From Marinosulfonomonas sp. (GTDB taxonomy: Bacteria > Pseudomonadota > Alphaproteobacteria > Rhodobacterales > Rhodobacteraceae): a stretch of DNA of 53,809 nt. This document shows, one piece after another, positions 35,512-53,809 of this stretch. Within the stretch, counting starts at the first letter, position 1. Every line of letters begins with the position of its first letter. The stretch spans positions 1 to 53,809 of the forward strand of contig JAHRVC010000202.1 of the NCBI GenBank assembly GCA_019090885.1. The letters run 5' to 3'. A model generated the notes under the pieces. The model did no database searches and was not told the DNA's origin. It saw nothing but the letters and a program-made list of their open reading frames with translations. The translations under genes were made by a program, and so were the position numbers.

Positions 35512-36264
35512 TTAAATGCCCCGCAGGATCATGCTGATCCCCATGAGAAACAGGATCGACAATAGTATCCGGCGAAAAACAACGTCGTTAACATTGCGGA
35601 TTAACCGTCTGCCAACCTCAAGCCCCAGCAAGGCGGGAATAACCGACAAGGATGACGCAACGACATCCGCCGGCAGCATGGCCCCATGATAGACTAGGCC
35701 CACTGCATATGGCACGGCTGCGAACAGGTAGATCACCGCAATTGCCGTTATAAATTCGTCTTTGCTTACTTTCAGGCTGGCCAGAAACAACACCACGGGC
35801 ATACCAAACAGCGAACTGACACCGCCCAGAACCCCGGCTGCCACACCCACGAAAATACTGACCCATCGTTCATGGCGCGCGGGCAATTGATATTTGCCGC
35901 CAATGCTCATGAAGAAAACCGAAATCACCAACGCACCGCCTGCTGTCAAAAGTAGCAGCGTCTCGTCCAGCGTGACCATCCACCGGGATGAAAAGGCCAA
36001 GGTAATTGCAACAACAATCTGCAACCGCCAAAACCGCTTCACCACGTTCCAGGCGCCGCCATTTTTCAAAGCTTGCCGGATATTTGTCACGATGATCGGG
36101 ATTGAAATCAGGGCCACTGATTGCGGCACGGAAAATCCGAACGATAGTATTGGCAGCGCCGCAAGGGGCATTCCAATCCCGGACAGGCCTTTTACAAGAC
36201 CGCCGCCCAGAAACGCCAATATGATAATCAGGATCGCACTCGGTTCTGCGAATTGCGCAAGCAT
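35512..36264 (-). CDS. TauE/SafE family sulfite/anion exporter
   Basis: 250 aa and very hydrophobic with about 7-8 TM helices. The internal-repeat-like G-rich helices are typical of TauE/SafE (DUF81). Confidence 0.82.
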   Translation of the reverse strand: MLAQFAEPSAILIIILAFLGGGLVKGLSGIGMPLAALPILSFGFSVPQSVALISIPIIVTNIRQALKNGGAWNVVKRFWRLQIVVAITLAFSSRWMVTLDETLLLLTAGGALVISVFFMSIGGKYQLPARHERWVSIFVGVAAGVLGGVSSLFGMPVVLFLASLKVSKDEFITAIAVIYLFAAVPYAVGLVYHGAMLPADVVASSLSVIPALLGLEVGRRLIRNVNDVVFRRILLSILFLMGISMILRGI

Positions 36265-36339
36265 TATGTGCGGCTTTGCGCGTTAAGTACCGACAGGAAA
36301 TTGTTCACTGGTCCGTTGCCTCCACCTGTCGGTATCTCG

Positions 36340-37122
36340 TTATTCTCCGGTGAATTTAGCTTTGCGCTTTTCTAAGAAAGCGCCGATACCTTCACGCCGG
36401 TCCTTCGTTTCATAAATGGTCGAAACGATGAAGGACTCATAGTCCAAAGCTGACGTAAGGTCCATCTGCATTCCGGTGTGAACCGTGTGCTTGATATAGG
36501 ACAGGCTTTGGGGTGCGCGGGTAGCGTAATGTTCAACCCGCTCCTTGGCGACTTCCAGCGCGCGCCCTTTGGGGACCAGCCGGTTAATCAGGCCCATACG
36601 ATAAGCATTATCCGCATCAACCGGGTCCGCATCAAACATCATTTCCAGTGCGTTTGCCGGACCAACAATGCGTGGCAGACGCTGTGTGCCGCCTGCGCCA
36701 GCAACCGTTCCGATCCGTGCGCTTGTAATCGCATAGCTAGATCCTTCGGCGCCAATACGCACATCAAGCGCCAGCATGAACTCACATCCACCGGTCATGC
36801 AGAACCCCTCGATCGCGGCGATCGTTGGCAGGTTGTTTTCCTCAAACGCGCGGCAGGTGCGGTGCCATTTGCGCAAATAAGTGAGCGTTTGTGCGGGCGA
36901 GCTAAGCGCCTGCGCGTCATTCAAATCCGCCCCGGCCGAGAAAAACTCTTGCCCGCCGGTCACGATGATCCCGCGCATATCCGGATCGGCCTCGGCCTCG
37001 GCGGCAGCGGCAACCAATTCGTCCATCACCTCGGTGCTGATTGCGTTGCGCACCTTTGGACGGTTAAAAGTGATGATAAAGGCGTGACCGGATTTCTCGG
37101 TCTTAATCAGTTTATAGTCCAC
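36340..37122 (-). CDS. enoyl-CoA hydratase/isomerase family protein (single catalytic Glu)
   Basis: Crotonase core FSAGADL and TGGCEFMLALD, with GAGGTQRLPR. The second catalytic Glu position is Ser. Confidence 0.88.
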   Translation of the reverse strand: MDYKLIKTEKSGHAFIITFNRPKVRNAISTEVMDELVAAAAEAEADPDMRGIIVTGGQEFFSAGADLNDAQALSSPAQTLTYLRKWHRTCRAFEENNLPTIAAIEGFCMTGGCEFMLALDVRIGAEGSSYAITSARIGTVAGAGGTQRLPRIVGPANALEMMFDADPVDADNAYRMGLINRLVPKGRALEVAKERVEHYATRAPQSLSYIKHTVHTGMQMDLTSALDYESFIVSTIYETKDRREGIGAFLEKRKAKFTGE

Positions 37123-37158
37123 GCTTTCGCTCCTACTTATTCATGTGTCAGCTTTTAT

Positions 37159-38346
37159 TCAGAACGCGCTTGGCATTCCCAGATCATTCACCGCGATATC
37201 GGTCAGCAGCGAATTGGTGCCCTGTGGCGTCATCTGCATAACCCGGGCATCGCGCCATTTACGTTCGATGTCGTATTCGCGCGCAAAGGCAAAACCACCA
37301 TGGGTGGTAAAACAGGCATCTGCCATCAGCCATGCGGCCTCACACGCCATATGTTTGGCCATACTGGCAAGTGGCCCCGGCATTTGGCCTGCGTCATAGA
37401 CAGCAGCCGCCTTGTTGCCGATTAGCTTGGCACCCTGCACCTCAATATAGGCCTTTGAGATTGGAAACTGGATGCCCTGATTATAGGCAATCGGGCGGCC
37501 AAACACGACGCGCTCTTTGGCGTAATTTACCGCGCGCTCAGAAAAGAACGCGGAATCGCCCGAGGCACAGGCGGCATACAGAATACACTCGACCTGAGCC
37601 AGATCGCGGTAATACTCATAGCCCTTCCCAACCTCGCCAATTACCGCATCCAGCGGCAATTCCAACCCGTCAAATACAAGGTTCGTGGCCCCGTCGTTGT
37701 TCATTGCGTCAATTGCATCACCCGACAGACCGCTTTTCAGCGCCGTCTTCATATCGACCAGAAACGCGGTTAGGCCATCGGTAGGGTTATCTGCGGTGCC
37801 GGGTGATGTGCGCGCAAGAAGCAGCATCAAATCGCTGTGCAGCGCACAATTGACCCATTGCTTTGATCCGTTGATCACATACCCGCCGCCGCGTTTTTGC
37901 GCCGTTGTCGCCATTTCTGCAAGGTCACTGCCTGTCTCCGTCTCGGTGATTGCCGAGGTCAGAAAGCGGACCTCGCCAGCAGCGATGCCGGGCAGGTATT
38001 TCTTTTTTTGCGCATCCGAGCCATGACGCACCAGAATATCAGACAGATACATCTGCCCAATCGCCGCCCCTGCATTGCAGGAGGTCGAGTGGATGGTCTC
38101 GAGTATCACCGCAGCGATGCGCAGCGACAGGCCCGCGCCGTCAAATTCCTCGGGGATGAGCGCGCCCAGAAAGCCGGACGCAATCAACGCATCGACAAAT
38201 TCCGCCGGATACCTTTGATCGGCGGGCTTGTCTTCCAACGCGCGCCAGTAAGCGCCGGGAAACCCCTCGCAGAGCGCCTTTAGCGGATCACGGAATTCGT
38301 CATAATCGTCGTCGTCAATCCGCATCATCAATAGTGCATCAGTCAT
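37159..38346 (-). CDS. acyl-CoA dehydrogenase family protein
   Basis: 395 aa with ACAD architecture (TETETGSD, GSKQWV, REYDIERKWRDARV). It ends in ...LGMPSAF. Confidence 0.9.
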   Translation of the reverse strand: MTDALLMMRIDDDDYDEFRDPLKALCEGFPGAYWRALEDKPADQRYPAEFVDALIASGFLGALIPEEFDGAGLSLRIAAVILETIHSTSCNAGAAIGQMYLSDILVRHGSDAQKKKYLPGIAAGEVRFLTSAITETETGSDLAEMATTAQKRGGGYVINGSKQWVNCALHSDLMLLLARTSPGTADNPTDGLTAFLVDMKTALKSGLSGDAIDAMNNDGATNLVFDGLELPLDAVIGEVGKGYEYYRDLAQVECILYAACASGDSAFFSERAVNYAKERVVFGRPIAYNQGIQFPISKAYIEVQGAKLIGNKAAAVYDAGQMPGPLASMAKHMACEAAWLMADACFTTHGGFAFAREYDIERKWRDARVMQMTPQGTNSLLTDIAVNDLGMPSAF

Positions 38347-38367: not shown

Positions 38368-39555
38368 TTAATAAGAGCGCGGCAGGCCCAGAACATGCTG
38401 GCCCACAAAGTTCAACACCATATTGGGTGAAATCGGCGAATTGCGCGCCGTGCGCGATTCACGCCATTTGCGTTGAATGGATGACGATTTGGCCATCCCG
38501 GATTCGCCAAACACGCTCAGCGCCACCTGTGCGCAGGCCCAGACGGCTTCGCCCGACAGGATCTTGCTCATGTTCGCCTCAGCCCCACATTTCATCCCTG
38601 CATCAAACATCGCCGCAGTCTTGCGCACCATCAGGTCGGCCGTTTCAAGCTGCGCATAGGCCTGTGCGATTGAAAACTGAACCGACTGAGTGGCTGACAT
38701 CGGGCGGCCAAACCGTTTATTTTCATTGGCGAACTTCATCGACTCGCGCAGAAAGTAGCGCCCGTTGCCGATAGTTTCGCTTGAGACTAGACAACGTTCG
38801 GCGTTCATCCCGTCAAGAATGTAACGAAAACCGCGTCCCTCTTGGCCCACAAGGCTATCTTCGGGGATAAACACATCGTCAAAGAAAATCTCGGTTGTGT
38901 TGTGGTTGATCATCGCATCAATCGGCGTGATGACCATGCCGTTTTCCTTGGCAACGCGCATGTCCACAAGAAAGGTCGACACGCCATGCGCGCGTTTTTC
39001 GACTTTGTCAGCCGGGGTTGTCCGCGCCAAAAGCAACATCAGGTCCGAATGACCTGCGCGGCTGATCCACACCTTCTGCCCGTTCAGCATGTAACCGCCG
39101 TCAACCTTGTCGGCCCGCGTTTTCAGCTGGGTCGTGTCTGATCCGGTGGTCGGTTCGGTAACGCCAAACGCTTGCAGCCGCAGTTCGCCCTTGGCGATTT
39201 TCGGCAGGTATTTATCTTTTTGCGCATCACTGCCGTGGCGCAATATCGTGCCCATTGTATACATCTGGGCGTGGCACGGCCCGGCGGTGCAGCCAGACGC
39301 GTGAATGGTTTCCAAAATCGCGGCACCACCACGCACAGGCAGGCCAAGACCGCCGTATTCAGCCGGGATCAACGCCGACAGAAAACCCGTTTTCGTCAGC
39401 GCCTCGACAAATTTGGTCGGATAGCTGCCCGAGGGTGGCTGATTTTCAAGGTATTCCCAATATGACGGCGGGTAATCCTCGCAGACTTTGGCGACCTCGC
39501 GGCGATATTCAGAATAATCTTCGCCCAGTGCAAACTCGACTGTTTGTTCGCTCAT
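38368..39555 (-). CDS. acyl-CoA dehydrogenase family protein (paralogue of the downstream gene)
   Basis: 395 aa with TEPTTGSD and GQKVWIS. It ends in ...LGLPRSY. Confidence 0.9.
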   Translation of the reverse strand: MSEQTVEFALGEDYSEYRREVAKVCEDYPPSYWEYLENQPPSGSYPTKFVEALTKTGFLSALIPAEYGGLGLPVRGGAAILETIHASGCTAGPCHAQMYTMGTILRHGSDAQKDKYLPKIAKGELRLQAFGVTEPTTGSDTTQLKTRADKVDGGYMLNGQKVWISRAGHSDLMLLLARTTPADKVEKRAHGVSTFLVDMRVAKENGMVITPIDAMINHNTTEIFFDDVFIPEDSLVGQEGRGFRYILDGMNAERCLVSSETIGNGRYFLRESMKFANENKRFGRPMSATQSVQFSIAQAYAQLETADLMVRKTAAMFDAGMKCGAEANMSKILSGEAVWACAQVALSVFGESGMAKSSSIQRKWRESRTARNSPISPNMVLNFVGQHVLGLPRSY

Positions 39556-39558: not shown

Positions 39559-40518
39559 TTAATCCTGTATTGAAGCGGTTGACGAATTCCAGGGAAACCC
39601 CTTTGGGGCTCCGGCTTTCGCATAGGTGCCGTGAAGGGGTTCATCAGGCAGGTTTGTCGCAATAATCTCGCGGATCGGCAGCAGTTTTTCGACGTCGATA
39701 CCGGTGTTCAACCCGGCGCCTTCAAGCAAAAATACCAGATCTTCCATCACGATATTTCCGGTCGCATTTGGCGCGAAAGGGCAGCCACCCAGCCCGGCGA
39801 GCGAGGCATCAAAACGGCGACACCCGGCCTCAAGTGCGGCATATACATTGGCAAGGCCAAGGCCGCGTGTATCGTGGAAATGCGCACCCACCATCACGTC
39901 GTCGCCAAAGTTTTCGATCACTTTGGTAAACAGTTCCTTAACCTCGCGCGGGTTGCCGTAGCCGACGGTGTCGGCAATCACCACCTCATCCACACCGGCC
40001 TTAACGAAATTTTCGACCGATTGCAGCACTGCATTATGGGGCACATGGCCTTCGAACGAACAGCCGAAAGATGTCGCAAAACCACCGGCCAATTTGAAAC
40101 GCTTGCCCTCAGGCAGGCTGTCGCGCAGCTCGACGACGCGCTTGAATTCGGCCAAAGCCTCGGCGGTTGAACGTCTGCCGTTGGATTGCGAATGCGTCTC
40201 GGATACCGAATTCATGAAATCAATCTCATGCACGCCGATCGCCTGCGCCGTCTGCGCGCCGCGCAGATTGGGGGTTAGCGCCGACACCCAAAGCCCGTCT
40301 TGTTCAAGCGCGGCCAAGGCCACATCTGGCGCATCAGAAAACTGCGGCAGCAGTTTGGGTGGCACGAAGGAACACACCTGCATGTTGGGCATGCCAGCGG
40401 CAACTTCTTCGCGAATCCAGCGAATTTTTTCGTCCGTAGGAACGAACGTCTTGACGATCTGGATGCCATCGCGCAGCCCAACTTCGCGGCATTCGACATC
40501 TATATTTTTGTTGGACAT
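39559..40518 (-). CDS. hydroxymethylglutaryl-CoA lyase family protein
   Basis: HMGL-like motifs EVGLRDGIQ, CSFVPPKLLPQF, HFHDTRGLGLANV and AGLGGCPFAP. Confidence 0.9.
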   Translation of the reverse strand: MSNKNIDVECREVGLRDGIQIVKTFVPTDEKIRWIREEVAAGMPNMQVCSFVPPKLLPQFSDAPDVALAALEQDGLWVSALTPNLRGAQTAQAIGVHEIDFMNSVSETHSQSNGRRSTAEALAEFKRVVELRDSLPEGKRFKLAGGFATSFGCSFEGHVPHNAVLQSVENFVKAGVDEVVIADTVGYGNPREVKELFTKVIENFGDDVMVGAHFHDTRGLGLANVYAALEAGCRRFDASLAGLGGCPFAPNATGNIVMEDLVFLLEGAGLNTGIDVEKLLPIREIIATNLPDEPLHGTYAKAGAPKGFPWNSSTASIQD

Positions 40519-40524: not shown

Positions 40525-41337
40525 CTATTTACCCTTGAAGGCCGGTTTGCGCTTTTCGTTAAAGGCGCGGACACCTTCCAGACGGTCCTCGGTAGGCACC
40601 AGCCGGTTATAGGCTTCGATTTCAAAGGCATAACCGTTTTTCAGGTCAACCTGCGTGGCCACATTCATCGACTTCTTGGCCTGATAAATAGCAAGCGGTG
40701 CGTTGTTGCAGATCGTGCGCGCGGTTTCCAAGACTTCTTCCATCAGCTTGTCGTCGTCACAAACCTTGTTGACCACGCCCCACTCACACGCCTGTTCGGC
40801 CGAAAATGGTTTGCCGGTCAGAATGATTTCTTTGGCGCGGCGAACACCAACTGCGCGGGGCAGGTTTTGCGTGCCCATGCCGCCGGGCATGATACCGATT
40901 TTGATCTCAGTCAGCGCAAAACGCGCGCGCCGCGCTGCATAAGCGAAATCACAGGTCACCACGGTTTCCATACCGCCGCCATAGGCAGCCCCATTCACTG
41001 CCGCAATGATCGGTATCGGGCAATCGAGTAACGCCATGCGGCACTTTTCGAACAGCGCATGCTGCTGCTGCCACTGCTCATCGGTCATGTTGTTGCGTTC
41101 TTTAAGGTCACCGCCCGCGTTGAAAATCTTTTCGCCCGCACCGGTCAGAACGATGCAGCGGATACCCTGTTGGTCGATGTAAAGGCTTGTCCACAACTCA
41201 AACAGTTCTCGGCCCATTTGCGTGTTCGTCGAGTTGCCTGCTTTCGGTCGGTCAAACGTGACGACCAGCAGGTGATCTTCGACCTCTTCGACCTTTACGG
41301 TTTCAAATGGGAATGGGGTTTTGAATTTATTTGTCAT
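40525..41337 (-). CDS. enoyl-CoA hydratase (methylglutaconyl-CoA hydratase-like, both catalytic Glu present)
   Basis: GGGMETVVTCD and FALTEIKIGIMPGGMGTQNL, comparable to the AUH/LiuC-type motif. 270 aa. Confidence 0.9.
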   Translation of the reverse strand: MTNKFKTPFPFETVKVEEVEDHLLVVTFDRPKAGNSTNTQMGRELFELWTSLYIDQQGIRCIVLTGAGEKIFNAGGDLKERNNMTDEQWQQQHALFEKCRMALLDCPIPIIAAVNGAAYGGGMETVVTCDFAYAARRARFALTEIKIGIMPGGMGTQNLPRAVGVRRAKEIILTGKPFSAEQACEWGVVNKVCDDDKLMEEVLETARTICNNAPLAIYQAKKSMNVATQVDLKNGYAFEIEAYNRLVPTEDRLEGVRAFNEKRKPAFKGK

Positions 41338-41554: not shown

Positions 41555-42280
41555 TCAAATTACGTCAGAATATCCGAAAATCCGTGATATTCGTTTGGTG
41601 CTCGCAACCAAATGCACTGCCAGCTCTTCGCGTCGTCCTGTTATCCGGGGCTCGGGCCCGGCGATCGAAATGCAGTAGGTGCACGCGCCTTTCAGGTCGT
41701 AAATCGGGGCGGCCATGCCAGCAGCACCAACAAGACGATCCCCGGCTGAACAGGCATAACCTTGCTCACGAATTTCAGCCAGTTCGCTATCAAGTGTCAC
41801 CGGCACATTCCCATTTTTGAAAATTGCGCCTACCAAATCGTCAGACTGGAACGCCATAAAGACGCGCCCGACCGCACCTGCATCCAATGAAACAACCTCT
41901 CCAACGCGAACGATGGAGCGCAACCTTGAAGGGCTTTCGACCACATCAAGCACCACCCGTTCTGTTCCTTCCAGGATGCTCAAGGAAACTGTTTCGCCGG
42001 TTAGTTCCCCCAGCAAGCGCAATTCGGATTTGGCAGCATCGCGGATGTCGAGTGTTGAGGGAATAAGGTTGGCCAGTCGAAGCACTTTGAACGAAATACA
42101 GTAACTTTGATCCTCAAGATGATTAAGGTAACCAATTTCAACGAGTGTGTTAAGCAGCCTGAATACGGTTGATTTTGGCAGGTCAAGCTTTTGGCAAATC
42201 TCGTGCAGAGTCAGGCGCTGAGCATCCGAACTGAAGCAGTCAAAAATAGCAAATGCTCTGACAACGGATCTAATTTGCAT
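41555..42280 (-). CDS. IclR family transcriptional regulator
   Basis: N-terminal wHTH LTLHEICQKLDLPKSTVFRLLNTLVEIGYL plus an IclR-type effector domain. Confidence 0.9.
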   Translation of the reverse strand: MQIRSVVRAFAIFDCFSSDAQRLTLHEICQKLDLPKSTVFRLLNTLVEIGYLNHLEDQSYCISFKVLRLANLIPSTLDIRDAAKSELRLLGELTGETVSLSILEGTERVVLDVVESPSRLRSIVRVGEVVSLDAGAVGRVFMAFQSDDLVGAIFKNGNVPVTLDSELAEIREQGYACSAGDRLVGAAGMAAPIYDLKGACTYCISIAGPEPRITGRREELAVHLVASTKRISRIFGYSDVI

Positions 42281-44920: not shown

Positions 44921-45430
44921 TTAGATAGACAAATCTGGGGTGTGTTCGCCAAGGTCGCCTTCGTTGCGGATCTGGCGCCAGATTTGTGCCAGCGCCTGAA
45001 GGATCAGGATGAAAAACCCGATAGGAATTGCGGATTCGGTCCAGAATTTGGGAACTTGGTTCATCGTCGCCGTGGCGCGCCCAACTTCGATGCTTTCAAG
45101 GACCACCTCGATGCCAAGCCAAAATGCAAAACAGCAGAATACCAGAATCCAGACCAGCGACAGGATTTCCAGATACCTGCGACCAGTGGCCCCGATCATT
45201 TCAGTCAAGACCGTAATTCGGATTAATCCGTTGCGGCGCAGAACATAGCCCATTGCAAGGTAGGTCGCCCATAATTGCAGCAACCGCGCGCCTTCTTCGG
45301 CCCATGTTGTGGGGGCAAAAAACACATAGCGTGCGACCACCTCATACGAGATCATCAAACCGATAATGAAAAACAAACCAGTCGCAATCTGGCCGAATTT
45401 CTCGGAAATACCGTCAATGAATCGAAGCAT
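44921..45430 (-). CDS. dctQ: TRAP transporter small permease
   Basis: 169 aa with 4 TM helices, positioned between dctP and dctM. Confidence 0.85.
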   Translation of the reverse strand: MLRFIDGISEKFGQIATGLFFIIGLMISYEVVARYVFFAPTTWAEEGARLLQLWATYLAMGYVLRRNGLIRITVLTEMIGATGRRYLEILSLVWILVFCCFAFWLGIEVVLESIEVGRATATMNQVPKFWTESAIPIGFFILILQALAQIWRQIRNEGDLGEHTPDLSI

Positions 45431-45466: not shown

Positions 45467-45497
45467 AGTCTGGCGGATCGATATGATCCGCCAGACT
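45467..45497 (-). other. intercistronic hairpin between dctP and dctQ
   Basis: Perfect 12-13-bp stem (A)GTCTGGCGGATC/GATCCGCCAGAC(T) with a 5-nt loop, about 25 nt after the dctP stop. Confidence 0.55.
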
Positions 45498-46526: not shown

Positions 46527-46663
46527 TCGTATTCCTCCCAAAAATTTCGTTGTACGGTGGGGAATGTTGGCATTGGAACAATTGTATTCGAATCCCAATG
46601 CGCCACCCCTCCCAAGTTGACACCCATCCAAATAGCATGAACAAACAAACGCGTCCACAATTA

Positions 46664-46680
46664 TGAAACGCATTTCAAAA
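46664..46680. promoter_or_regulatory. candidate IclR-type operator TGAAACGCATTTCA(AAA) in the dctP/tauD-like divergent promoter region
   Basis: Inverted repeat TGAAA-N4-TTTCA. The 16-mer GAAACGCATTTCAAAA recurs at 41501-41516 with one mismatch. Confidence 0.4.
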
Positions 46681-46883
46681 TTCAATTATTCGAACACGGA
46701 TGTGCGATATTCACGCCGCTGAACAGCCCGACCCAATACCAGTTTGACTATAAAAACCGAATGGCAGAACCAAGGTATGCCGGGTGAGCCCGCGTCAATT
46801 GGGCCAAGCCAAAACTGGCTGAATCGTGCTAGCGTTGGAATTAGCGTCGCGTTACGTCAAAAAACCGAAGGAAGGTCTGAGAA

Positions 46884-47723
46884 ATGGCAAATGATACATT
46901 CACGATAGCACCGATGTCCGGGGCAATCGGCGCGGAAATCCTTGGGATAGATTTGTCAGCGCCAATCAGCGACCAGACAATCGCCGAAATCCGCAAAGCG
47001 CAGAATGACCATCTAGTTATATTTTTCCGCGATCAGGATATCACCCCCGCACAGCATCTGGATTTCGCTCAACGATTTGGTGAGGTAGTTGAATACCCGC
47101 TGGTCAAAGGGCTTGATGATTACCCACAGATCGCACCTGTCATAAAGCTAAAGCACGAGACCGTTAATTTCGGCGGCGTCTGGCATTCGGACACGGCCTA
47201 TTTGCCTGCCCCGCCCAAAAGCACAATGCTTGTTGCGCGCGAGCTTCCGCCATTCGGCGGCGACACGTTATTTTCGAATATGTATATGGCCTATGAGACA
47301 TTGTCCGATGGCATGAAATCCCTGTTGGGCGGCTTGCTAGCGATCAATTCAACCCAGAAAGCGGATGCCTCTGCTACTAGAGAGGACCGGTTGAAGACCG
47401 GGGCAAAAGAGGGTTCGGATGATGAGATTGCTTCCGCCCATCCGGTTGTCCGCACCCATCCCGAAACGGGACGGAAGCTCCTTTATGTCAACGCCGGGCA
47501 CACGACCCGGTTTGAAAATATGACAGAAGAAGAAAGTGCGCCAATTCTCGACTACCTGTTCGCACATCAAATTCGTCCGGAATTCACCTGCCGATTCCGC
47601 TGGCAACCCGGCTCGATAGCATTTTGGGATAACCGTGCAGCACAGCACAACCCGATCAACGACTATCACGGACACCAAAGGGTTATGCACAGAATCACAC
47701 TTGCGGGCGAAGTTCCCAGCTAG
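46884..47723 (+). CDS. taurine dioxygenase-like Fe(II)/2-oxoglutarate dioxygenase (TauD/TfdA family)
   Basis: HxD facial-triad motif WHSDTAY, GGDTLF, HPVVRTHP and WDNRAAQH...MHR. It looks collinear with E. coli TauD as I remember that sequence. Confidence 0.88.
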   Translation: MANDTFTIAPMSGAIGAEILGIDLSAPISDQTIAEIRKAQNDHLVIFFRDQDITPAQHLDFAQRFGEVVEYPLVKGLDDYPQIAPVIKLKHETVNFGGVWHSDTAYLPAPPKSTMLVARELPPFGGDTLFSNMYMAYETLSDGMKSLLGGLLAINSTQKADASATREDRLKTGAKEGSDDEIASAHPVVRTHPETGRKLLYVNAGHTTRFENMTEEESAPILDYLFAHQIRPEFTCRFRWQPGSIAFWDNRAAQHNPINDYHGHQRVMHRITLAGEVPS

Positions 47724-47737: not shown

Positions 47738-49912
47738 TTACCTGTCGATCTTCAGGCGTGCGCGCATGTCTGCATCGACGGGTTGGGGCTGGCCAATCAC
47801 ATCGCCGATCGCCAATTTGAGGTTGGAAAACACCATTGGCGAACCGATCAACGGCCAATGCAGGCCGTCCGGTCCATCGTGCATTTGCATAAGCGACCGC
47901 GCCTTGGTTTGCGGGTGATCCAGCATATCTGCAATTGATTGAACAGGAACCGCAATCAGCCCGGCAATTGTGAGCTGCTCAATCGCCTGTACTCTAGTCA
48001 AATCTTTCCACTGATCCTGTGGAATTTTCGCTCGTAGATCATCGGGCGCGCCAGCAACGCAAACATACCCGTCTGTGCATTCCAACATCTGGTTTTGACG
48101 CACCGCGTCTGGTTCATCATTCCAAAGCGAGGCCGTCATCCACACGGCGATATCCTGCATGGACAGATCCAGATAATCACCTTTCCCGGTCCGCTCTCGG
48201 TTTCGCAAGGCAGCGAGCACAAAGAACAGGCCGACTTCACCGCCCATAAAATCACAGGCAGAAACGCCGGCTTTCAACGGGGTGCCATCCCAGGAATTCG
48301 CGTTCATCAAACCAGCCATCGCCTGAACCACCGTGTCAAAGGCCGGTCGTTCTTCATAGGCTGAATCCGCGCCAAACCCGGAAATTGCGCAATAGATCAG
48401 GCGGGGGTTGATCGACGACATTTTCTGCCAGTCAAATCCACGCCGCGCCAGTGATCCGGGTTTCAGGTTTTCCAGAAATATGTCGGCGCTTTCCAGTAAT
48501 TTCGTGAAAATTTCCTGACCTTCATCGCTTTGAAGATCGACGGCGATGCTGGTTTTCCCAGCATTACTCATGACAAAAAAGTAGCTCAAATCACCATTGT
48601 GCGGCAACCATTCACGCGCGGCGTCGCCTGTGGGTGGCTCAATCTTGATGACCTCAGCACCCAGTGTCGCCAGATGTTTGGTCGACAGCGGCGCGGTCGT
48701 GTATTGACCGATCTCAAGGACGCGAATGCCTTGCAACGGCAGGGCCAAATCGCCGCCGCCCTGCCCGTCCGCTTTAAAGTCGGGTTTTTTGGCAATAAAA
48801 TCCTTGGCTAAGGCACATGCTTCGTCGCGATCAGGAATGTGGTCCGGCACGCGCCCGTCGCCGGTGACCGCTTTTAAAATTGCACCGGGAATACGCATGT
48901 CGCCGGTTTCGGAATGATCCGGAACATGGCGGATCATCGAGCGGTGGCGCAGGTTTGGATCCTGATCGCCGTCCTCCATTCGCAGGATCGGCCCGCAGGC
49001 AATATCTGCGGCCATCAGGATCTCGACGGCCTGCGTAACACTGTGACGACCGACCCAGTCTTGCACAATCTGGTTCACCTCATCCCGGTTTTCCATCCGG
49101 CCCGGCAGGTCGGCATATTTGGGATCGTCGCCAAACTGCGGCACACCCATCACATTGCAAAGCCGTTGCCACGGCGGATTGGAGGCCGAGCACAAAAGAA
49201 GCCAGCCGTCGGACGCCTGAAACGCATTCCAAGGCGCGCACATTGCATGTTGGTTGCCCACCCGCATCGGGGCTTTGCCGCCGAAATGGGCTGGCAGGAA
49301 GGTGGCTAGGGAATTAACCCCAGCGTCATAGAGCGCCATGTCGATGGTCTGGTTGTGGCCAGTCTGGTCGCGCGCGCTCAAGGCCGCAACGATCGCAGCG
49401 GCCCCATAGGTCCCGGTCGAATATTCAAGCAATGGAACCTGCAGCGTCACCGGCGGCCCGTCTGCAAAACCCGTGGTGTGGGCAACCCCGGACATCGCCT
49501 GAACCAGCGCGTCATCATAGGGTTTCCCAGCCAAAGGGCCGTCTTTGCCAAAAGCCGTAAAATCGCAAACTATAGCGGCTTCCTGACAGTCATCGACAAT
49601 GCTCTGCCATGCAGCCGGATCAACATCGCCCGACACCAAAACCACATCGGCAGTTTGGATCAGGCGGGTGAGCATTTCCACGTCAGACTTGTCGTCGGGG
49701 TCCGCAAGGATGGCGTGCTTGCCGGATGCATAAAGCTTGCGGTTTTCCCATTTGTTGCTGGTAGCGGTTTTGCGCGGCTCAACAAAGAACACATCCGCGC
49801 CCGCCTCTGCCAACAAGGATCCGCAGACGCCCACTGAAATTCGGCTGCCGATCTCGACCACACTAATGGCGGCCAGATATTCGGTTGCGGGGCGTGTGTT
49901 GATCTGGCTCAT
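47738..49912 (-). CDS. fused double-module family-III (CaiB/BaiF) CoA-transferase
   Basis: 724 aa. The C-terminal module has the canonical GIRVLEIGQYTTAPLSTKHLATLGAEVIKIEPPTGD. The N-terminal module has a degenerate version (ISVVEIGSRISVGVCGSLLAEAGADVFFVEP). Confidence 0.85.
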   Translation of the reverse strand: MSQINTRPATEYLAAISVVEIGSRISVGVCGSLLAEAGADVFFVEPRKTATSNKWENRKLYASGKHAILADPDDKSDVEMLTRLIQTADVVLVSGDVDPAAWQSIVDDCQEAAIVCDFTAFGKDGPLAGKPYDDALVQAMSGVAHTTGFADGPPVTLQVPLLEYSTGTYGAAAIVAALSARDQTGHNQTIDMALYDAGVNSLATFLPAHFGGKAPMRVGNQHAMCAPWNAFQASDGWLLLCSASNPPWQRLCNVMGVPQFGDDPKYADLPGRMENRDEVNQIVQDWVGRHSVTQAVEILMAADIACGPILRMEDGDQDPNLRHRSMIRHVPDHSETGDMRIPGAILKAVTGDGRVPDHIPDRDEACALAKDFIAKKPDFKADGQGGGDLALPLQGIRVLEIGQYTTAPLSTKHLATLGAEVIKIEPPTGDAAREWLPHNGDLSYFFVMSNAGKTSIAVDLQSDEGQEIFTKLLESADIFLENLKPGSLARRGFDWQKMSSINPRLIYCAISGFGADSAYEERPAFDTVVQAMAGLMNANSWDGTPLKAGVSACDFMGGEVGLFFVLAALRNRERTGKGDYLDLSMQDIAVWMTASLWNDEPDAVRQNQMLECTDGYVCVAGAPDDLRAKIPQDQWKDLTRVQAIEQLTIAGLIAVPVQSIADMLDHPQTKARSLMQMHDGPDGLHWPLIGSPMVFSNLKLAIGDVIGQPQPVDADMRARLKIDR

Positions 49913-49924
49913 TCAAATGCTCAT

Positions 49925-51955
49925 TCAGTTTGCGTCGGCTGCGCGCGCACCCGTCAGTTCCAGATTATCGGCACCAATTTCGGGAACGATACAGGGTTTC
50001 AATGTTGGCGTCCGGCTAAAAGAATAGGGCGCCGATATGATGGCATTGCCGCCCCTGTTTTCCTTTTCAAAGATCAACAGACCGTTGCGCTTGGCGACGT
50101 TCAGATCGTAAACCTCATCCAGCTCCAGCATTCTTGTCGCCCGGATATCTTTGCCGGACAGCTTTTCAACAACCACGTTGCCGGGTTGCGTTTTGGCCCA
50201 GCTCAGGTCCAGATTAGCGGCCGCACACAAGGCAACAACCCAACCATCTGCGGTTTGCACGATTGTATTGGGCGGTAATACCTGATCCCCGTCGGGCCAG
50301 CTAAGTTCACCCATCCACGCGACCGTGTCATACATCGCGATATCCAGAACGACGCCCGCGCCGGTCCGGCGAACCTGACGTAGTGCTGCGATAATTTCCA
50401 ACGGCGCTATATGAGCAGCGGCAAGATCGGCGATCGAAAAACCGCCCTTGATAGGGCCGCTGTCCGAGGCGATGCGGGAAATAACCCCTGCCTCGGCCTG
50501 AATGACAGTATCCAAAGCGGGCCGGTCAGACCCATTGAAACCGTATCCCGAAATGCCACAATAGATCAGGCGGGGATTGATTTTTAACAGGTCACCCGCG
50601 CCCAGCCCCATCCGATCCAGCGCACCCGCCTTTAGATTGAACAGCAGGGCGTCGGCGGTTTTGACCAGTTCCAGAAACGCCGCTTTGCCTTGCTCAGACC
50701 GCAGATCCAGAACAACCGATTTTTTACCAGCGTTGTAGTTGGCAAAGTAGCAGCTGACGCCATCCACCAGCGGTTGCCACAGACGAGAATCTTCGCCGCC
50801 AGTGCCCTCGACCTTTATCATTTCGGCGCCAAGGTTGCCCAAGAAACGCCCAGCGAGGGGCCCGGCTGTATATGGCCCTACCTCAAGAATTTTGACACCG
50901 GCACAAGGCTGGGTTGGCGTTTCAAAACGGGGCTGCGGTTGCGGGGCCTTGGCGGCTGCCCCGGCGCTGCGACGGCACGGAATTGCTTTGCCCATTTGCG
51001 CCACGGACGTCGTTTCGGCCACCGTGCCACAGGGAATACCGCGTTCGCGTAGCTTGGCCAGCGCATCGTCGGTCGTTTCGGTCTTAGTCCAGTCACCAAC
51101 CAGTTCATCGACCTTCTGCACATTGGCAATGCGCGACGCCGCCAGTGCGTAGTCGGGATCATCGGCTAGTTCCGGGCGGCCCATGATGGTTGTCAGGTCC
51201 AGCCAGTTCCCATTGCTCGTGGTGCAAATAATAACGCGGCCGTCACGCGTCTGATAGGCATTCCAAGGGGAAACCAAAGGGTGCCTGCACCCGTTGCGAA
51301 AACCACGGGTTTTGCCAGACAAAACCTTACCAAGAAATGTTCCGGTCAGGGTAAAGCAGGTATCAAACACCGCCATATCCAGCAGTTGTCCACACCCAGA
51401 GGTTTCTTGCACTCGCAGGGCCGCAACGCTTGCCGTGGCGGCATTAACGCCCGTGAAAACCTCTAGGATCGGCAGATCAACGATGGCCGGGATGCCATTG
51501 ATATCGCCGGTCGTGGCCAGCAAGCCGCTGATTGCCTGCATTTCAACCTCGCCCGGATCAACAAGCGGTGGGTCGGCGACGTCCAGCCCAAATGGCGACA
51601 TGGCGCAAACGATCAGGCGGTCGGTATCAAGACCCGTCAACATCGCATCGGCCTGCGCCTTGCCATCAACCGCAATCGGCGGGGTCACGATGACGATCGC
51701 AGCCGTATCGACCAGCGCCGCCCATTGCCCGGCAAAATCATCAGACGTGCCGTCCAGCTCTAACTGCTCGCCTTTGACCTCGGTAAAGGGATGATCGCGC
51801 CACTTGGTTGGTTCGTTTGGCAATGGATCATCGGATACAACCACACGAATGACTTGGGCGCCCAGATCCTCCAACCGGCCAGCACAAACGCTACCGGCCA
51901 GACGGCCGACACGTTCGATGACTTTCACACCGGCAAGTGATCCTTCTTGCGCCAA
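49925..51955 (-). CDS. fused double-module family-III (CaiB/BaiF) CoA-transferase, paralogue
   Basis: 676 aa. The C-terminal module has GVKILEVGPYTAGPLAGRFLGNLGAEMIKVEGTGGED. The N-terminal module is degenerate (VKVIERVGRLAGSVCAGRLEDLGAQVIRVV). It is 12 nt upstream of the paralogue. Confidence 0.85.
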   Translation of the reverse strand: MAQEGSLAGVKVIERVGRLAGSVCAGRLEDLGAQVIRVVVSDDPLPNEPTKWRDHPFTEVKGEQLELDGTSDDFAGQWAALVDTAAIVIVTPPIAVDGKAQADAMLTGLDTDRLIVCAMSPFGLDVADPPLVDPGEVEMQAISGLLATTGDINGIPAIVDLPILEVFTGVNAATASVAALRVQETSGCGQLLDMAVFDTCFTLTGTFLGKVLSGKTRGFRNGCRHPLVSPWNAYQTRDGRVIICTTSNGNWLDLTTIMGRPELADDPDYALAASRIANVQKVDELVGDWTKTETTDDALAKLRERGIPCGTVAETTSVAQMGKAIPCRRSAGAAAKAPQPQPRFETPTQPCAGVKILEVGPYTAGPLAGRFLGNLGAEMIKVEGTGGEDSRLWQPLVDGVSCYFANYNAGKKSVVLDLRSEQGKAAFLELVKTADALLFNLKAGALDRMGLGAGDLLKINPRLIYCGISGYGFNGSDRPALDTVIQAEAGVISRIASDSGPIKGGFSIADLAAAHIAPLEIIAALRQVRRTGAGVVLDIAMYDTVAWMGELSWPDGDQVLPPNTIVQTADGWVVALCAAANLDLSWAKTQPGNVVVEKLSGKDIRATRMLELDEVYDLNVAKRNGLLIFEKENRGGNAIISAPYSFSRTPTLKPCIVPEIGADNLELTGARAADAN

Positions 51956-51975
51956 TGCTATCCCCCCATCAGACC

Positions 51976-53130
51976 CTAGCGAAACGCGTCGATACCAGCC
52001 AGTTCACGTCCCTGAATTAGGGCCAGAATACCGTTCGCGCCATCCGGAATTGGCAGCATGCGAACATCGCGATAAAGCTGCTCCAGCCCGGTTTCTTCGG
52101 CCACACCCATCGCACCATGCACCTGCATGGCTTCGGAAATCGCGGTCTCGCAGGCCGTTGTCGCATAGCGCTTGGCCATCGCCGAGGTGCCATTTGCCCG
52201 CTCACCGTGATCCATTGCATTCAGTGCGGAATAACAAAGCAGGCGGCTGGTGACGATTGCCGTTTCAATGTCGGCCAGTTGCTTTTGCACCAGCTGATGG
52301 CCGCCGATAAATTTACCGAACTGTTTGCGCACACCGGCATATTCGACCGCCGCCTCAAACGCTTTTTGCGCCAGATGAACGGCCGCAAGCCCAACCAACG
52401 GCCGGTTGCCGTTCCATGTGACGGTCAACAGACGTGCGGCATCGCCCGATGCGCCAAGCGAGTTGATCTTTGGCACCCGGCAATTGTCGTAAAGTATCTC
52501 ACCCAGATGCCCCTGACGCAGACCGAGACATGGGATTTCGCGCGTTTGGACACCAGCAGTTTCGCGTTCAACAACGATGCGACGCAGTTTGGAATTGCCG
52601 CGCTCGTCCTTGCCTTCAGAACAGGTCGTGTTGAAAATATCGGCGATCCCGGCATTGGTGATCCAGATCTTAGCGCCATTGATCACCAGTTCATCACCGT
52701 CTTCTTTAACGGTCGTCCGCACCTCACGCGGGTTTGAGCCGACGTTCGGCTCGGTCGTTCCGGTGCAACAAATTTTCGTGCCAGCCAGAATGCCCGGCAG
52801 GAACATTTCTTTTTGCTCAGGTGAGCTTTCGGCAAAGATGCGCGCGGCGGTGCATTCCTGTGCCAAAATAGACATCGAAATCACCGGCGGCAGAATTTCG
52901 AACATAAAACCATAGTCGAGCATTTTCAGCCCGGCACCACCGTCTTTTTCAGGCAGGCGCGGCGCCATCAGGCCCATCTGCGCCAGCGATTTATAAATCT
53001 CCAGCATCGCCTCTTTGGGCAATGGTTTGGATGCATCATGTTTGGCAAGAATTGGGTCTACGTCCCGCTCGACCATCGTTTTGGTCGCGTCGCGAATAAG
53101 TTCTTGCTCAGAAGTGAATTTGAAATCCAT
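51976..53130 (-). CDS. acyl-CoA dehydrogenase family protein (Asp at the catalytic-base position)
   Basis: 384 aa with TEPNVGSN, GAKIWITN and LYRDVRMLPIPDGANGIL. Confidence 0.9.
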   Translation of the reverse strand: MDFKFTSEQELIRDATKTMVERDVDPILAKHDASKPLPKEAMLEIYKSLAQMGLMAPRLPEKDGGAGLKMLDYGFMFEILPPVISMSILAQECTAARIFAESSPEQKEMFLPGILAGTKICCTGTTEPNVGSNPREVRTTVKEDGDELVINGAKIWITNAGIADIFNTTCSEGKDERGNSKLRRIVVERETAGVQTREIPCLGLRQGHLGEILYDNCRVPKINSLGASGDAARLLTVTWNGNRPLVGLAAVHLAQKAFEAAVEYAGVRKQFGKFIGGHQLVQKQLADIETAIVTSRLLCYSALNAMDHGERANGTSAMAKRYATTACETAISEAMQVHGAMGVAEETGLEQLYRDVRMLPIPDGANGILALIQGRELAGIDAFR

Positions 53131-53143
53131 TACGCTTTTGTCC

Positions 53144-53809
53144 TCATGGCATTACAAAGCCGCCGTTAACGCTAAAGACCTGTCCGGTCACCCAGGATGC
53201 CTGGTCGCTGGCGAGATAAGTGATCATGTTGGCATGATCTTGTGGCAGTCCGATACGGCGCGCCGGATACATTCGCAGAACCTTTTTGGTCCGCGCAGCG
53301 TAGCGTTCTTCGCCAATCGCTTCTTTTGTCTGAATTTCTCGCGCCTGACGCAGCTCGGTATCGGTTGCACCCGGCGAAACAACGTTCAGCGTCACACCGT
53401 CCGGGCCAACTTCTTGGGCGACAGATTTGATCAGGGCGATCACGCCACCTTTGGCGGCCGCATAGTAAGACAGACGGGCCTGCCCAACACGCGCAGAATC
53501 CGACGCCATGCAGATGATGCGGCCAAATTTCCGCTCGACCATTCCCGGCAGAACTGTGTGCATCACGTTCAGCGGGCCGTAAAGGCACACATCAATGATG
53601 CGTTTCCAATCTTTCGGGCCGGAATCAAGGAACAGTTTGTCGTCAAGCAATGCGGCCGAAACGATCACAATATCCGGCGCACCAAGATGATCGGTGACAG
53701 ACTGAATCATCGCCTCGACGCTTTCCAACGAACTTATGTCCGCCTGCACGCCAAGTTTCTGACTATCATCGCCGGCAAGACGGTCGGCAGCGGCAAGCGC
53801 GGCCTCGCC
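53144..53809 (-). CDS. short-chain dehydrogenase/reductase (SDR), 5'-truncated by the window edge
   Basis: YxxxK active site (YYAAAKGG) and NVVSPG. The reading frame stays open upstream of the GTG at 53749 to the window end, and the Rossmann N-terminus is missing. Confidence 0.88.
   Translation of the reverse strand, partial: GEAALAAADRLAGDDSQKLGVQADISSLESVEAMIQSVTDHLGAPDIVIVSAALLDDKLFLDSGPKDWKRIIDVCLYGPLNVMHTVLPGMVERKFGRIICMASDSARVGQARLSYYAAAKGGVIALIKSVAQEVGPDGVTLNVVSPGATDTELRQAREIQTKEAIGEERYAARTKKVLRMYPARRIGLPQDHANMITYLASDQASWVTGQVFSVNGGFVMP

Follow-up and report, generated by a model that had tools for sequence, protein, structure and literature searches.

The 53,809-nucleotide stretch of the metagenomic contig JAHRVC010000202.1 analysed here (hereafter the window), from the Rhodobacteraceae member Marinosulfonomonas sp. 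(assembly GCA_019090885.1), ends in an 18-kb region with two operons for coenzyme A (CoA) thioester chemistry. We give a probability of roughly 55% to the following reading as a whole. The region would be the larger part of a conserved, uncharacterised catabolic supercluster of about 25 kb, which would import a branched or substituted di- or tricarboxylic acid and handle it throughout as CoA thioesters. Its left operon is probably a non-orthologous, stereo-complementary variant of the methylsuccinate or branched short-chain dicarboxylate route. The right operon is a separate module, which is far more widespread without the left one. All steps of this reading were derived from homology and synteny, and the gene layout was taken from an open reading frame (ORF) listing and Pfam scans of the window. 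The genes are listed below; ACAD stands for acyl-CoA dehydrogenase, HMG for 3-hydroxy-3-methylglutaryl and SDR for short-chain dehydrogenase/reductase.

35512..36264, minus: TauE/SafE-family membrane protein, 250 aa (PF01925, E=8e-22), last gene of the left operon
36340..37122, minus: ECH2, crotonase family, 260 aa (PF00378, E=1.6e-59)
37159..38346, minus: ACADb (ACAD N, M and C domains)
38368..39555, minus: ACADa, PA0879-like (methylsuccinyl-C4-CoA-dehydrogenase-family) acyl-CoA dehydrogenase
39559..40518, minus: HMGL, HMG-CoA-lyase-family (DRE-TIM) lyase (PF00682, E=1e-44)
40525..41337, minus: ECH1, crotonase-family enoyl-CoA hydratase (PF00378, E=4e-67)
41555..42280, minus: IclR-family transcriptional regulator (PF09339 and PF01614)
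42322..43539, minus: MFS transporter (PF07690, E=4e-37)
43638..44909, minus: DctM, TRAP membrane subunit (PF06808, E=1e-107)
44921..45430, minus: DctQ, TRAP membrane subunit (PF04290, E=2e-29)
45522..46685, minus: DctP-type TRAP solute-binding protein (PF03480, E=1.7e-47, residues 91-370)
46884..47723, plus, divergent from dctP: TauD/RdpA-family Fe(II)/2-oxoglutarate dioxygenase (PF02668, E=2e-65)
47738..49912, minus: CoAT2A, tandem-domain family III CoA-transferase, 724 aa (PF02515 twice)
49925..51955, minus: CoAT2B, tandem-domain family III CoA-transferase, 676 aa (PF02515 twice)
51976..53130, minus: ACADc, right-module acyl-CoA dehydrogenase (ACAD domains)
53144..53809, minus: SDR, N-terminus cut by the window end (PF13561 and PF00106)

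Eleven co-directional minus-strand genes, from dctP (45522-46685) down to the TauE/SafE gene (35512-36264), include the left operon with ECH1-HMGL-ACADa-ACADb as its enzymes. The TauD gene is convergent with the right operon, SDR-ACADc-CoAT2B-CoAT2A, likewise on the minus strand. Every gene family that a sequence-only reading of this DNA had named lies where that reading placed it. Its "two fused CoA-transferases" are apt in that each polypeptide holds two tandem domains, but there is no fusion between the two genes. The DctP ORF counts 387 aa from a TTG start at 46685 and the relatives 332-364 aa. The ORF is probably over-extended, with the true start downstream.

The SDR reading frame stays open up to the last base of the window, so that the end of the window cuts off part of this gene and of the cluster. 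The continuation can be followed in relatives, which are referred to here by locus numbers (L001 and so forth). The closest named relative, a Marinosulfonomonas sp. metagenome-assembled genome (MAG; L009, Rhodobacteraceae), is collinear with window positions 45215-53809, the last base included, and shares about 82% nucleotide identity with them. Past that point it carries the start of the SDR gene and then, divergently, a single-domain family III CoA-transferase (424 aa). Further on lie an MmgE/PrpD protein (452 aa) and a flavin reductase of the Old Yellow Enzyme (OYE) family (370 aa), and also a third crotonase, ECH3 (278 aa), and an RraA-like protein. A Roseovarius MAG (L010) has at the same position a CoA-transferase, a PrpD, a mesaconyl-CoA-hydratase-like MaoC protein, a second PrpD and an ACAD.

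Syntenic loci came from a scan of genomes with the tandem CoA-transferase as seed and from a tblastn matrix made afterwards. Both operons occur together in a Rhodobacterales assembly (L001), in the Rhodobacteraceae loci L007, L010 and L063, in a Hyphomicrobiaceae MAG (L011) and in a Rhodospirillales MAG (L014). Three further Rhodospirillales loci (L015-17) show a compact ten-gene form, SDR-ACADc-CoAT2B-CoAT2A / IclR / ECH1-HMGL-ACADa-ACADb-ECH2. In the cultured Pseudorhizobium flavum YW14 (L174) the block lies on conjugative plasmid 2. There it is followed by ECH3, an Mct-like CoA-transferase, a Liv-type ABC transporter, MaoC, a Ccl-like lyase and electron transfer flavoprotein genes. The Mct-like enzyme (16047-17267 of L174) has the mesaconyl-CoA C1-C4 isomerase as its only NCBIfam match, at 381.6 bits against a cut-off of 725. 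The MaoC dehydratase and the RipC/Ccl-like lyase close the cluster at 22187-23841. By their family assignment these terminal genes would place C5-branched dicarboxylate chemistry beside the composite cluster. The arrangement is not chance, since the same genes recur jointly in independent lineages, and the co-conserved catabolic block postulated by the sequence-only reading is thereby borne out. Its picture of one 18-kb unit has to be revised, as the cluster is larger, more modular and cut at the window end, with the right operon as a module of its own.

The genes between the two operons vary: TauD and TRAP genes in the window, L007 and L010, TRAP genes alone in L063, a thiamine pyrophosphate (TPP) enzyme with RraA and ECH3 in L001, and none in the Rhodospirillales. 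TRAP genes were found only in a subset of Rhodobacterales (L007, L008, L010, L012, L063, L094), and TauD is absent from L001, L011, L014-17, L063 and L174. In no other locus compared does a TauE/SafE gene follow ECH2; its place is taken by ECH3 in L001, L011, L095 and L174. IclR adjoins ECH1 in L001, L007, L010, L011, L014, L063 and L174, and MFS adjoins IclR in L001 and L011, both of which are devoid of TRAP genes. In Rhodobacterales and Hyphomicrobiaceae, no other importer is linked to the IclR-ECH1 unit as consistently as MFS. The core of the cluster is thus the two enzyme modules and IclR, plus MFS in marine lineages. TauD, TRAP and TauE are lineage-specific accessories and therefore weak guides to the substrate. 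This also holds for the DctP-type importer from which the organic acid had been deduced earlier. DctP has only distant solved relatives, the best being an isethionate-binding protein (E=1e-24), so that no ligand can be deduced from them. TauD scores 262 bits on the taurine dioxygenase equivalog, below the cut-off of 313, and its best solved relative is the ether-cleaving (R)-phenoxypropionate dioxygenase RdpA (243 bits). The TauE/SafE protein, with no NCBIfam match, may be an accessory anion exporter or permease.

The chemistry of the left operon is best approached through its dehydrogenases. Gonner et al. characterised PA0879 as a (RS)-methylsuccinyl-C4-CoA dehydrogenase; the MmgE/PrpD protein PA0881 they found to be a (S)-(R)-methylsuccinate isomerase that uses His102 and Tyr148 (PMC12290011). 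Over nearly the full length (about 380 residues), identity to PA0879 is about 50% for ACADa (179/358) and about 47% for ACADb; ACADc is 31% identical. These values were obtained by a frameshift-tolerant dynamic-programming alignment to the gene text in the supplement of PMC12290011, which is damaged by optical character recognition (OCR). Plain tblastn against the damaged PA0879 and PA0881 texts gave a misleading value of about 27%, owing to frameshifts, and was replaced. Given these identities, the left operon is best read as a variant of the methylsuccinate route and not as a derivative of the leucine (Liu) pathway, with which it had been compared. For the same reason the earlier verdict that no known pathway matches was too strong. 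For close homologues of the key dehydrogenase a pathway has already been assigned; the hydratase and lyase of that pathway belong to other families than those found here.

ACADa belongs to a very large and highly conserved family, with 8000 homologues at E<=1e-30, of which the best 120 are all at least 64% identical, and more than 600 matching metagenome stretches. It has a candidate catalytic glutamate in the motif MNAER, which we take to be the base position of the isovaleryl-CoA dehydrogenase (IVD) type, and lacks the C-terminal YEG glutamate. ACADb is 41% identical to ACADa. It is absent from the minimal modules described below, and across lineages it is conserved at 44-48% where ACADa reaches 68-70%. 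This lower conservation, together with the identity to ACADa, suggests an a/b heteromer in composite clusters, of which ACADb is probably the second subunit. None of the three dehydrogenases reaches any NCBIfam equivalog cut-off. ECH1 is the most conserved enzyme of the block (75-94% identity across orders) and keeps both catalytic glutamates in the motifs GGGME and LTEIKIG; its best NCBIfam match is PRK07657, at 260 bits against a cut-off of 363. HMGL passes the NCBIfam model PRK05692 for the HMG-CoA lyase subfamily (269.6 against 246), an assignment at family level only. Its best solved relatives are HMG-CoA lyases, and the R-D-G-x-Q, H-F-H-D and G-G-C-P motifs are kept.

A minimal operon of single-domain CoA-transferase, ECH1, HMGL and ACADa stands alone in marine Alphaproteobacteria and on a Pontibrevibacter plasmid. 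It is flanked by IclR and MmgE/PrpD genes and sometimes by a TAXI-TRAP or TRAP transporter. That it occurs by itself in many genomes agrees with the order of dehydrogenation, hydration and HMG-CoA-lyase-type cleavage proposed earlier. Of 20 ACADa metagenome loci with adequate flanks, 12 contain PrpD, 12 ECH1 and 11 a CoA-transferase. The linkage of ACADa and PrpD mirrors the published rule that methylsuccinate isomerase genes always adjoin the dehydrogenase (Mcd) genes (PMC12290011). No PrpD gene lies in the window. The PrpD proteins of the minimal modules (L089, L092) are 32-39% identical to methylsuccinate isomerases and retain both bases that characterise methylsuccinate isomerase and IDS epimerase, namely the tyrosine (in a SHY motif) and the catalytic histidine. 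More remote members of the ACADa family, at about 50% identity, neighbour a CoA-transferase, a MaoC hydratase and a CitE-like lyase (Ralstonia megaplasmid, Pseudosulfitobacter), which indicates that the hydratase/lyase pair is interchangeable. This other layout is the one known as the itaconate/methylsuccinate cluster. Among relatives of the present cluster, MaoC genes are only peripheral (L010, L015-17, L174), and CitE-like genes were found only where the P. flavum cluster ends and in such other loci of the ACADa family. A match on a Cupriavidus plasmid (H44) was checked as a candidate itaconate cluster and is not one.

The right operon centres on its large CoA-transferases, which are 31% identical to each other and each consist of two tandem PF02515 domains in one polypeptide. 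Their closest solved relatives are the dicarboxylate enzymes YfdE and SUGCT, in line with the activation by CoA transfer proposed earlier. In YfdE, the nucleophile Asp173 and His233 of the GNxH loop that form one active site come from different subunits (PMC3720670). Alignments to YfdE and 4ed9 place Asp554 in the C-terminal half of CoAT2A at the catalytic position (YfdE Asp173, Frc Asp169), although this half is poorly alignable past its residue ~200. In the N-terminal half, Glu163 stands at the Asp173 position and the GNxH loop is kept (G219-N-Q-H222). CoAT2B shows the same pattern with a G-C-R-H loop, and the glutamate at the aspartate position of the N-terminal halves is invariant. Both proteins thus combine the CoA_transf_3 fold and the nucleophilic aspartate of family III. 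Because the aspartate is found in the C-terminal half only and the loop in the N-terminal half only, we infer single-polypeptide pseudo-heterodimers, each with one canonical active site. L007, L008, L012 and L174 have no CoAT2B, the first three showing a gap of about 357 bp between ACADc and CoAT2A; in view of L007, L008, L012 and P. flavum, CoAT2B appears to be dispensable or redundant.

Among 50 loci with a fused CoA-transferase and adequate flanks, the recurrent companions are OYE (28/50), ECH2 (27/50), ACADc and SDR (25/50 each), PrpD (22/50) and a single-domain CoA-transferase (20/50). IclR and an ADP-forming acyl-CoA synthetase are each found in 16/50, TctC binding proteins in 14/50. Neither the genes called in L001-L008 nor the annotated P. 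flavum cluster nor the recurrent neighbour families scanned with Pfam include a thiolase. ECH3 from L009, L001 and L174 scores 407-420 bits on the model of BadI, the ring-opening hydrolase of the cyclohexanecarboxylate (bad-ali) pathway, against a cut-off of 467.6; its best MenB score is 321-327. It directly follows ECH2 in L095 and L174, adjoins it in L001 and L011, and lies upstream of OYE in L009. The full-length SDR orthologue of L009 has BadH as its best NCBIfam match (207.6 against 431) and is a candidate BadH-like 3-hydroxyacyl-CoA dehydrogenase. ACADc scores 155 against 575 on the cyclohexanecarboxyl-CoA dehydrogenase (AliB) model and has an aspartate in a PDG motif where the glutamate of YEG is usual. 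An exact-sequence lookup of ACADc returned no record, and its context was taken from homologues. ECH2 keeps the first hydratase glutamate (TGGCE); the position of the second reads ITSARIG. This crotonase travels with the right module elsewhere and is here encoded inside the left operon.

Taken together, these assignments suggest the following route. The acid would enter through the MFS and/or the TRAP transporter under IclR control. In the right module, whose partners would be ECH2 and the off-window single-domain CoA-transferase, MmgE/PrpD, OYE reductase, BadI-like hydrolase and RraA-like protein, CoA would be transferred by the pseudo-heterodimeric tandem enzymes. Dehydrogenation, hydration and alcohol oxidation would then yield a β-ketoacyl-CoA, and the BadI-like enzyme would cleave the C-C bond hydrolytically, giving a thiolase-free module resembling β-oxidation. 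By analogy, the hydrolysed bond may be either in a ring, as in bad-ali, or in an acyl-succinyl-type side chain, as in benzylsuccinate (Bbs) degradation with the hydrolase in place of the thiolase. The right module would in this way open a ring or strip a side chain from a larger precursor and feed a branched dicarboxylate to the left operon. There, the PA0879-like dehydrogenase, probably an a/b heteromer, would desaturate a 3-substituted dicarboxyl-CoA of the methylsuccinyl-C4-CoA type. ECH1 would hydrate the product to a tertiary alcohol, and HMGL would cleave the tertiary 3-hydroxyacyl-CoA by retro-aldol reaction to acetyl-CoA and an oxo-acid, namely pyruvate from a citramalyl-CoA-type or acetoacetate from an HMG-CoA-type intermediate. 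For the left module we rank methylsuccinate-type substrates (2-alkylsuccinates) above 3-methylglutarate, and the latter above ring-bearing or 3-carboxy analogues. The branched dicarboxylate class suggested by the sequence-only reading is therefore reasonable; the 3-methylglutarate type that it singled out is possible and is not favoured over the methylsuccinate type.

The stereochemistry of the left operon is expected to differ from that of the known route. (S)-HMG-CoA is the substrate of the HMGL-family enzyme PA2011, while CitE-like lyases such as PA0883 and Rv2498c act on (S)-citramalyl-CoA and (R)-HMG-CoA. By our reasoning, (S)-HMG-CoA is the spatial counterpart of (R)-citramalyl-CoA, because the Cahn-Ingold-Prelog (CIP) priorities of the carboxyl- and CoA-bearing arms are exchanged from citramalyl-CoA to HMG-CoA. 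With a crotonase and HMGL in place of MaoC and a CitE-like lyase, the opposite alcohol configuration would be expected. An HMGL-family (R)-citramalyl-CoA lyase has reportedly been found in Chloroflexus by Friedmann et al. in 2007. A bolder and rather unlikely version of the proposal makes the ~25-kb cluster an undescribed thiolase-free, ATP-independent pathway for a substituted succinate (alkyl- or carboxyalkyl-succinate, for example) or an alicyclic acid rich in carboxyl groups (for example a cycloalkane polycarboxylate). CoA-transferases would shuttle CoA between carboxyls, a BadI-type hydrolase would replace thiolase, and crotonase and HMGL would provide a finish of the (R)-citramalyl-CoA/(S)-HMG-CoA type, the mirror image of the (S)-citramalyl-CoA route.

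With respect to known systems, the cluster works like a mosaic of the Liu, itaconate/methylsuccinate and bad-ali pathways. The itaconate/methylsuccinate cluster of P. aeruginosa (PA0878-PA0886) and Cupriavidus necator encodes Ict, Ich, Ccl, Mcd and Msi (PMC12290011). Shared with it, on the reading proposed here, are the activation of a branched dicarboxylate by a succinyl-CoA-dependent family III CoA-transferase, an ACAD with about 50% (ACADa) or 47% (ACADb) identity to PA0879, MmgE/PrpD linked to ACAD in related loci, and the hydration to a tertiary alcohol followed by a lyase that yields acetyl-CoA and an oxo-acid. P. aeruginosa likewise has a transporter for branched short-chain dicarboxylates, which is presumably a TRAP system. 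However, PF00378 crotonases stand here for the MaoC-type hydratase Ich, and an HMGL-like PF00682 lyase for the CitE-like (S)-citramalyl-CoA lyase Ccl. The a/b pair of dehydrogenases, the tandem-domain CoA-transferases and the large second module are further differences, and the PrpD of the composite cluster lacks the tyrosine of the epimerases. Because hydratase and lyase are of different families, the cluster is not the canonical itaconate/methylsuccinate system. With Liu (LiuA, LiuBD, LiuC, LiuE) it shares an ACAD, a crotonase-type hydratase and an HMG-CoA-lyase-family enzyme encoded together. It differs in its dicarboxylate-type entry by CoA transfer and in having no orthologue of methylglutaconyl-CoA hydratase (ECH1, 260 against 363) or isovaleryl-CoA dehydrogenase. 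No biotin carboxylase or carboxyltransferase domain was found in the cluster genes or in 29 further window ORFs scanned, as the sequence-only reading had stated for the window. For lack of a carboxylase the cluster is not Liu.

The bad-ali pathway of Rhodopseudomonas palustris and Aromatoleum sp. CIB comprises AliA and AliB plus BadK, BadH and BadI, five functions that suffice to convert cyclohexanecarboxylate to pimelyl-CoA under aerobic or anaerobic conditions (PMC9795900). The right module has candidate counterparts for all five (activation, ACAD, crotonase, SDR and a MenB/BadI-type C-C hydrolase), would need no thiolase for C-C cleavage, and has in its relatives a near-equivalog of BadI. 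Unlike bad-ali, it uses a CoA-transferase and not an AMP-forming ligase, its hydrolase gene lies off-window, PrpD and OYE are added, and a lyase route takes the place of the aab/pim β-oxidation with thiolase. Since there is no ligase and no equivalog is reached, the cluster is not bad-ali. In the Bbs system (BbsEF, BbsG, BbsH, BbsCD, BbsAB), benzylsuccinate undergoes β-oxidation with thiolase as the last enzyme, and succinyl-CoA is regenerated as CoA donor. The use of a family III CoA-transferase with two different halves, ACAD, crotonase and SDR on a substituted succinate is common to both; Bbs ends with thiolase, whereas a BadI-like hydrolase is the candidate here, and sequence similarity to BbsEF is weak (83-103 bits). 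The carriers of the present cluster are Alpha- and Betaproteobacteria, mostly from oxic habitats. In the thn pathway, the family I CoA-transferase ThnP, the ACAD ThnO and a hydratase precede a postulated ring-opening lyase (PMC11659651). Compared by logic and not by sequence, it resembles the present cluster in transferring CoA onto a dicarboxylate, dehydrogenating, hydrating to a tertiary alcohol and cleaving by lyase instead of thiolase; it differs in the CoA-transferase family, and thn organisms are strict anaerobes. By analogy, it could serve as the published precedent for joining the logics of the left and the right module. DddD consists of two tandem CaiB-type family III domains with the catalytic aspartate in the C-terminal domain, and is said to act as a CoA-transferase/lyase on dimethylsulfoniopropionate (DMSP) in work of Alcolombri et al. 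from 2014 (cited in PMC5395668). The likeness is in this architecture, a single polypeptide with two family III domains; CoAT2A and CoAT2B fall short of DddD by about 100 residues, and no ddd neighbours were seen. Models of crotonobetainyl-CoA and glutaryl-CoA dehydrogenase scored far below threshold. The literature on the combined enzyme set yielded nothing specific, and that on DddD and CaiB only general remarks on SAR202.

Other readings of the cluster were weighed against this one. The whole block might degrade a substituted alicyclic acid of naphthenic, terpenoid-derived or carboxyl-rich type, with the right module opening the ring as in bad-ali and ACADa/b, ECH1 and HMGL cleaving a tertiary ring or branch carbon in the manner of the ACAD, hydratase and "novel lyase" of anaerobic naphthalene degradation. 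The BadI score of ECH3, the BadH match of the SDR, the five-for-five correspondence with aliA and aliB plus badK, badH and badI, the activation of cyclohexanecarboxylate by a CoA-transferase in Geobacter, the thn sequence of CoA-transferase, ACAD, tertiary-alcohol hydratase and postulated lyase, and the strong linkage of OYE all favour it. We nevertheless regard it as unlikely, for the BadI, BadH and AliB cut-offs are all missed, a BadI-type retro-Claisen hydrolysis works equally well on an acyclic β-ketoacyl-CoA, and ACADa/b appear to belong to the methylsuccinyl-C4-CoA dehydrogenase family. Moreover, the left module standing alone with an epimerase-type PrpD points to small acyclic acids, and ThnP belongs to family I, not family III. 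Distinctly unlikely, too, is a left operon that oxidises 3-methylglutarate or HMG-type acids by a carboxylase-bypassing lower Liu route, from 3-methylglutaryl-CoA via 3-methylglutaconyl-CoA and (S)-HMG-CoA to acetyl-CoA and acetoacetate. It would account well for the HMGL score and intact catalytic motifs, for the two glutamates of ECH1, which resemble those of methylglutaconyl-CoA hydratases, for the MNAER glutamate if that position is indeed the IVD-type base, and for the kinship of the CoA-transferases with SUGCT, a succinate-hydroxymethylglutarate CoA-transferase. Yet the closest characterised ACAD is a C5 enzyme, the partners of the family elsewhere (epimerase-type MmgE/PrpD, MaoC/mesaconyl-CoA hydratases, Mct-like CoA-transferase, Ccl-like lyases) all belong to C5-branched dicarboxylate chemistry, and ECH1 misses its equivalog cut-off. 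We also know of no natural source of 3-methylglutarate.

A plain leucine/isovalerate (Liu) pathway with its methylcrotonyl-CoA carboxylase encoded elsewhere would explain the trio of ACAD, crotonase and HMG-CoA lyase. It is very improbable and was rejected, since no carboxylase domain was found in the 54-kb window and none lies next to the block in L001, L009, L010, L014-17, L095 or L174. The sequence-only reading had held that such a gene just outside the window would reduce the cluster to Liu; in just two of the syntenic loci, L006 (an unlinked gene) and L067, did a carboxyltransferase query find a match. Activation by dicarboxylate-type CoA-transferases and the resemblance of ACADa to PA0879 do not fit Liu either, and the linked PrpD, OYE, fused CoA-transferases and BadI-like hydrolase are all foreign to it. 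Hardly more credible is an organosulfur pathway, in which TauD would desulfonate, an ACAD-like desulfinase with CoA-transferase would act on 3-sulfinopropionate-type acids or a DddD-like enzyme on DMSP-type compounds, and TauE would export sulfite. TauD- and TauE/SafE-family genes are indeed present, the tandem CaiB architecture recalls that attributed to DddD, and the desulfinase model is among the top ACAD matches. But all three ACADs score only 157-171 bits on 3-sulfinopropanoyl-CoA desulfinase against a cut-off of 600, ACADa keeps its candidate catalytic glutamate, TauD falls below the taurine dioxygenase cut-off and is closest to RdpA, and neighbours of the dddB, dddC or dddT type were not seen. 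TauD and TauE are, besides, absent from most syntenic clusters, and sulfonate or sulfinate catabolism was rejected. Two or three unrelated operons for different substrates, side by side by chance, are quite improbable as well. Such a juxtaposition would agree with the many loci that have the right module without the left, the many genomes with the minimal left module alone, and the variable intervening genes (TauD and TRAP, or TPP enzyme and RraA). However, the modules adjoin each other in at least four taxonomic orders, Rhodobacterales, Hyphomicrobiales and Rhodospirillales among them, as well as on a conjugative plasmid, and the gene set stays the same while its arrangement changes. ECH2, a companion of the right module elsewhere, sits inside the left operon here, and ECH3 directly follows it in L095 and L174.

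Several points weigh against the supercluster reading itself. The right module occurs mostly without the left, whose genes are found in only 4-5 of the 50 fused-CoA-transferase loci, and the functional link between the two modules comes from co-occurrence only. Of the 20 flanked ACADa loci, no more than 4 contain HMGL. The BadI-like, PrpD, OYE and RraA-like genes lie outside the window and are supplied by relatives of about 82% identity, and the L009-type PrpD of the composite cluster lacks the epimerase tyrosine. The identity to PA0879 was measured on the OCR-damaged text, with 19-24 damaged codons per alignment, and 50% identity leaves the substrate unfixed in any case. No protein reaches an equivalog cut-off, HMGL passing only a subfamily model, so that the specificities given here are putative. 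ECH2, without a second catalytic glutamate, may not be a simple hydratase. Finally, the equivalence of (S)-HMG-CoA and (R)-citramalyl-CoA is our own reasoning.

In other lineages the modules are mobile, being flanked by transposons or borne on plasmids. A PrpD-CoAT / SDR-ACADc-CoAT2B-CoAT2A unit without the left module, in Roseovarius and metagenome contigs (L002-L005), has a Tn3-family transposase and resolvase as well as IS66 elements at its borders. On the Pontibrevibacter plasmid (L175), the minimal left module lies beside an IS3 element. The window itself has no integrase, transposase or adjacent tRNA, so that a genomic island in the strict sense was rejected. Its only tRNA, a tRNA-Arg, is 7 kb from the cluster, and base composition shows no sharp boundary across the window.

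As to regulation, the three intergenic regions examined as possible IclR operator sites contain no inverted repeats. A perfect palindromic hairpin with a 14-bp stem and a 3-nt loop lies in the dctP-dctQ spacer (45467..45497). Judged by its stem length and position only, it may be an intra-operon attenuator or an mRNA stabiliser that raises expression of the binding protein over that of the membrane subunits. Terminator-like sites as a class are not enriched in the window over shuffled sequence (26 found, 23.4 expected), and the promoter scan gave a similar result.

The remainder of the window holds housekeeping and unrelated transport genes. A third uptake system (31362-35498) lies immediately upstream of the cluster; a TAXI-TRAP system also flanks the minimal ACADa module in L089. 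Its genes are:

31362-32330: TAXI-type TRAP binding protein NMT1_3
32434-35070: fused DctQM permease with DUF3394
35067-35498: universal stress protein

In a separate, putative peptide-utilisation unit (20538-28360), an M20 peptidase and an aldehyde dehydrogenase accompany an Opp/Dpp-type ABC transporter made up of SBP_bac_5, two permeases and a double ATPase; the tRNA-Arg(CCT) at 28284-28360 follows, and then a LacI regulator and a class III aminotransferase. A crotonase-family ORF of 208 aa (10112-10738), surrounded by housekeeping genes, matches only profile positions 3-188 of 251; it could be a copy that is truncated or has degenerated. Positions 16896-17996 encode an N6/N4 DNA methyltransferase with a RAMA domain at its C-terminus. 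We take this combination to be typical of the alphaproteobacterial CcrM, which fits the assignment to Rhodobacteraceae.

Branched C5 and C6 dicarboxylates such as itaconate and methylsuccinate matter in immunometabolism, in soil carbon turnover and for bio-based polymers. Only in 2025 was the methylsuccinate route worked out, and the isomerase of that route is found mainly in Beta- and Gammaproteobacteria (PMC12290011). The left operon points to a second, non-orthologous solution by a crotonase and an enzyme of the HMG-CoA-lyase family, for which the opposite stereochemistry is expected. Marine, freshwater and soil metagenomes contain this solution in abundance, its dehydrogenase matching more than 600 loci. 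The right operon represents a very common gene set of Alpha- and Betaproteobacteria (tandem CoA-transferase, ACAD, SDR, crotonase, OYE, PrpD and BadI-like hydrolase), the substrate of which may be a substituted succinate or an alicyclic acid. As cultured carriers exist, namely Pseudorhizobium flavum YW14 with its plasmid 2 and Pontibrevibacter nitratireducens, the pathway is directly testable.

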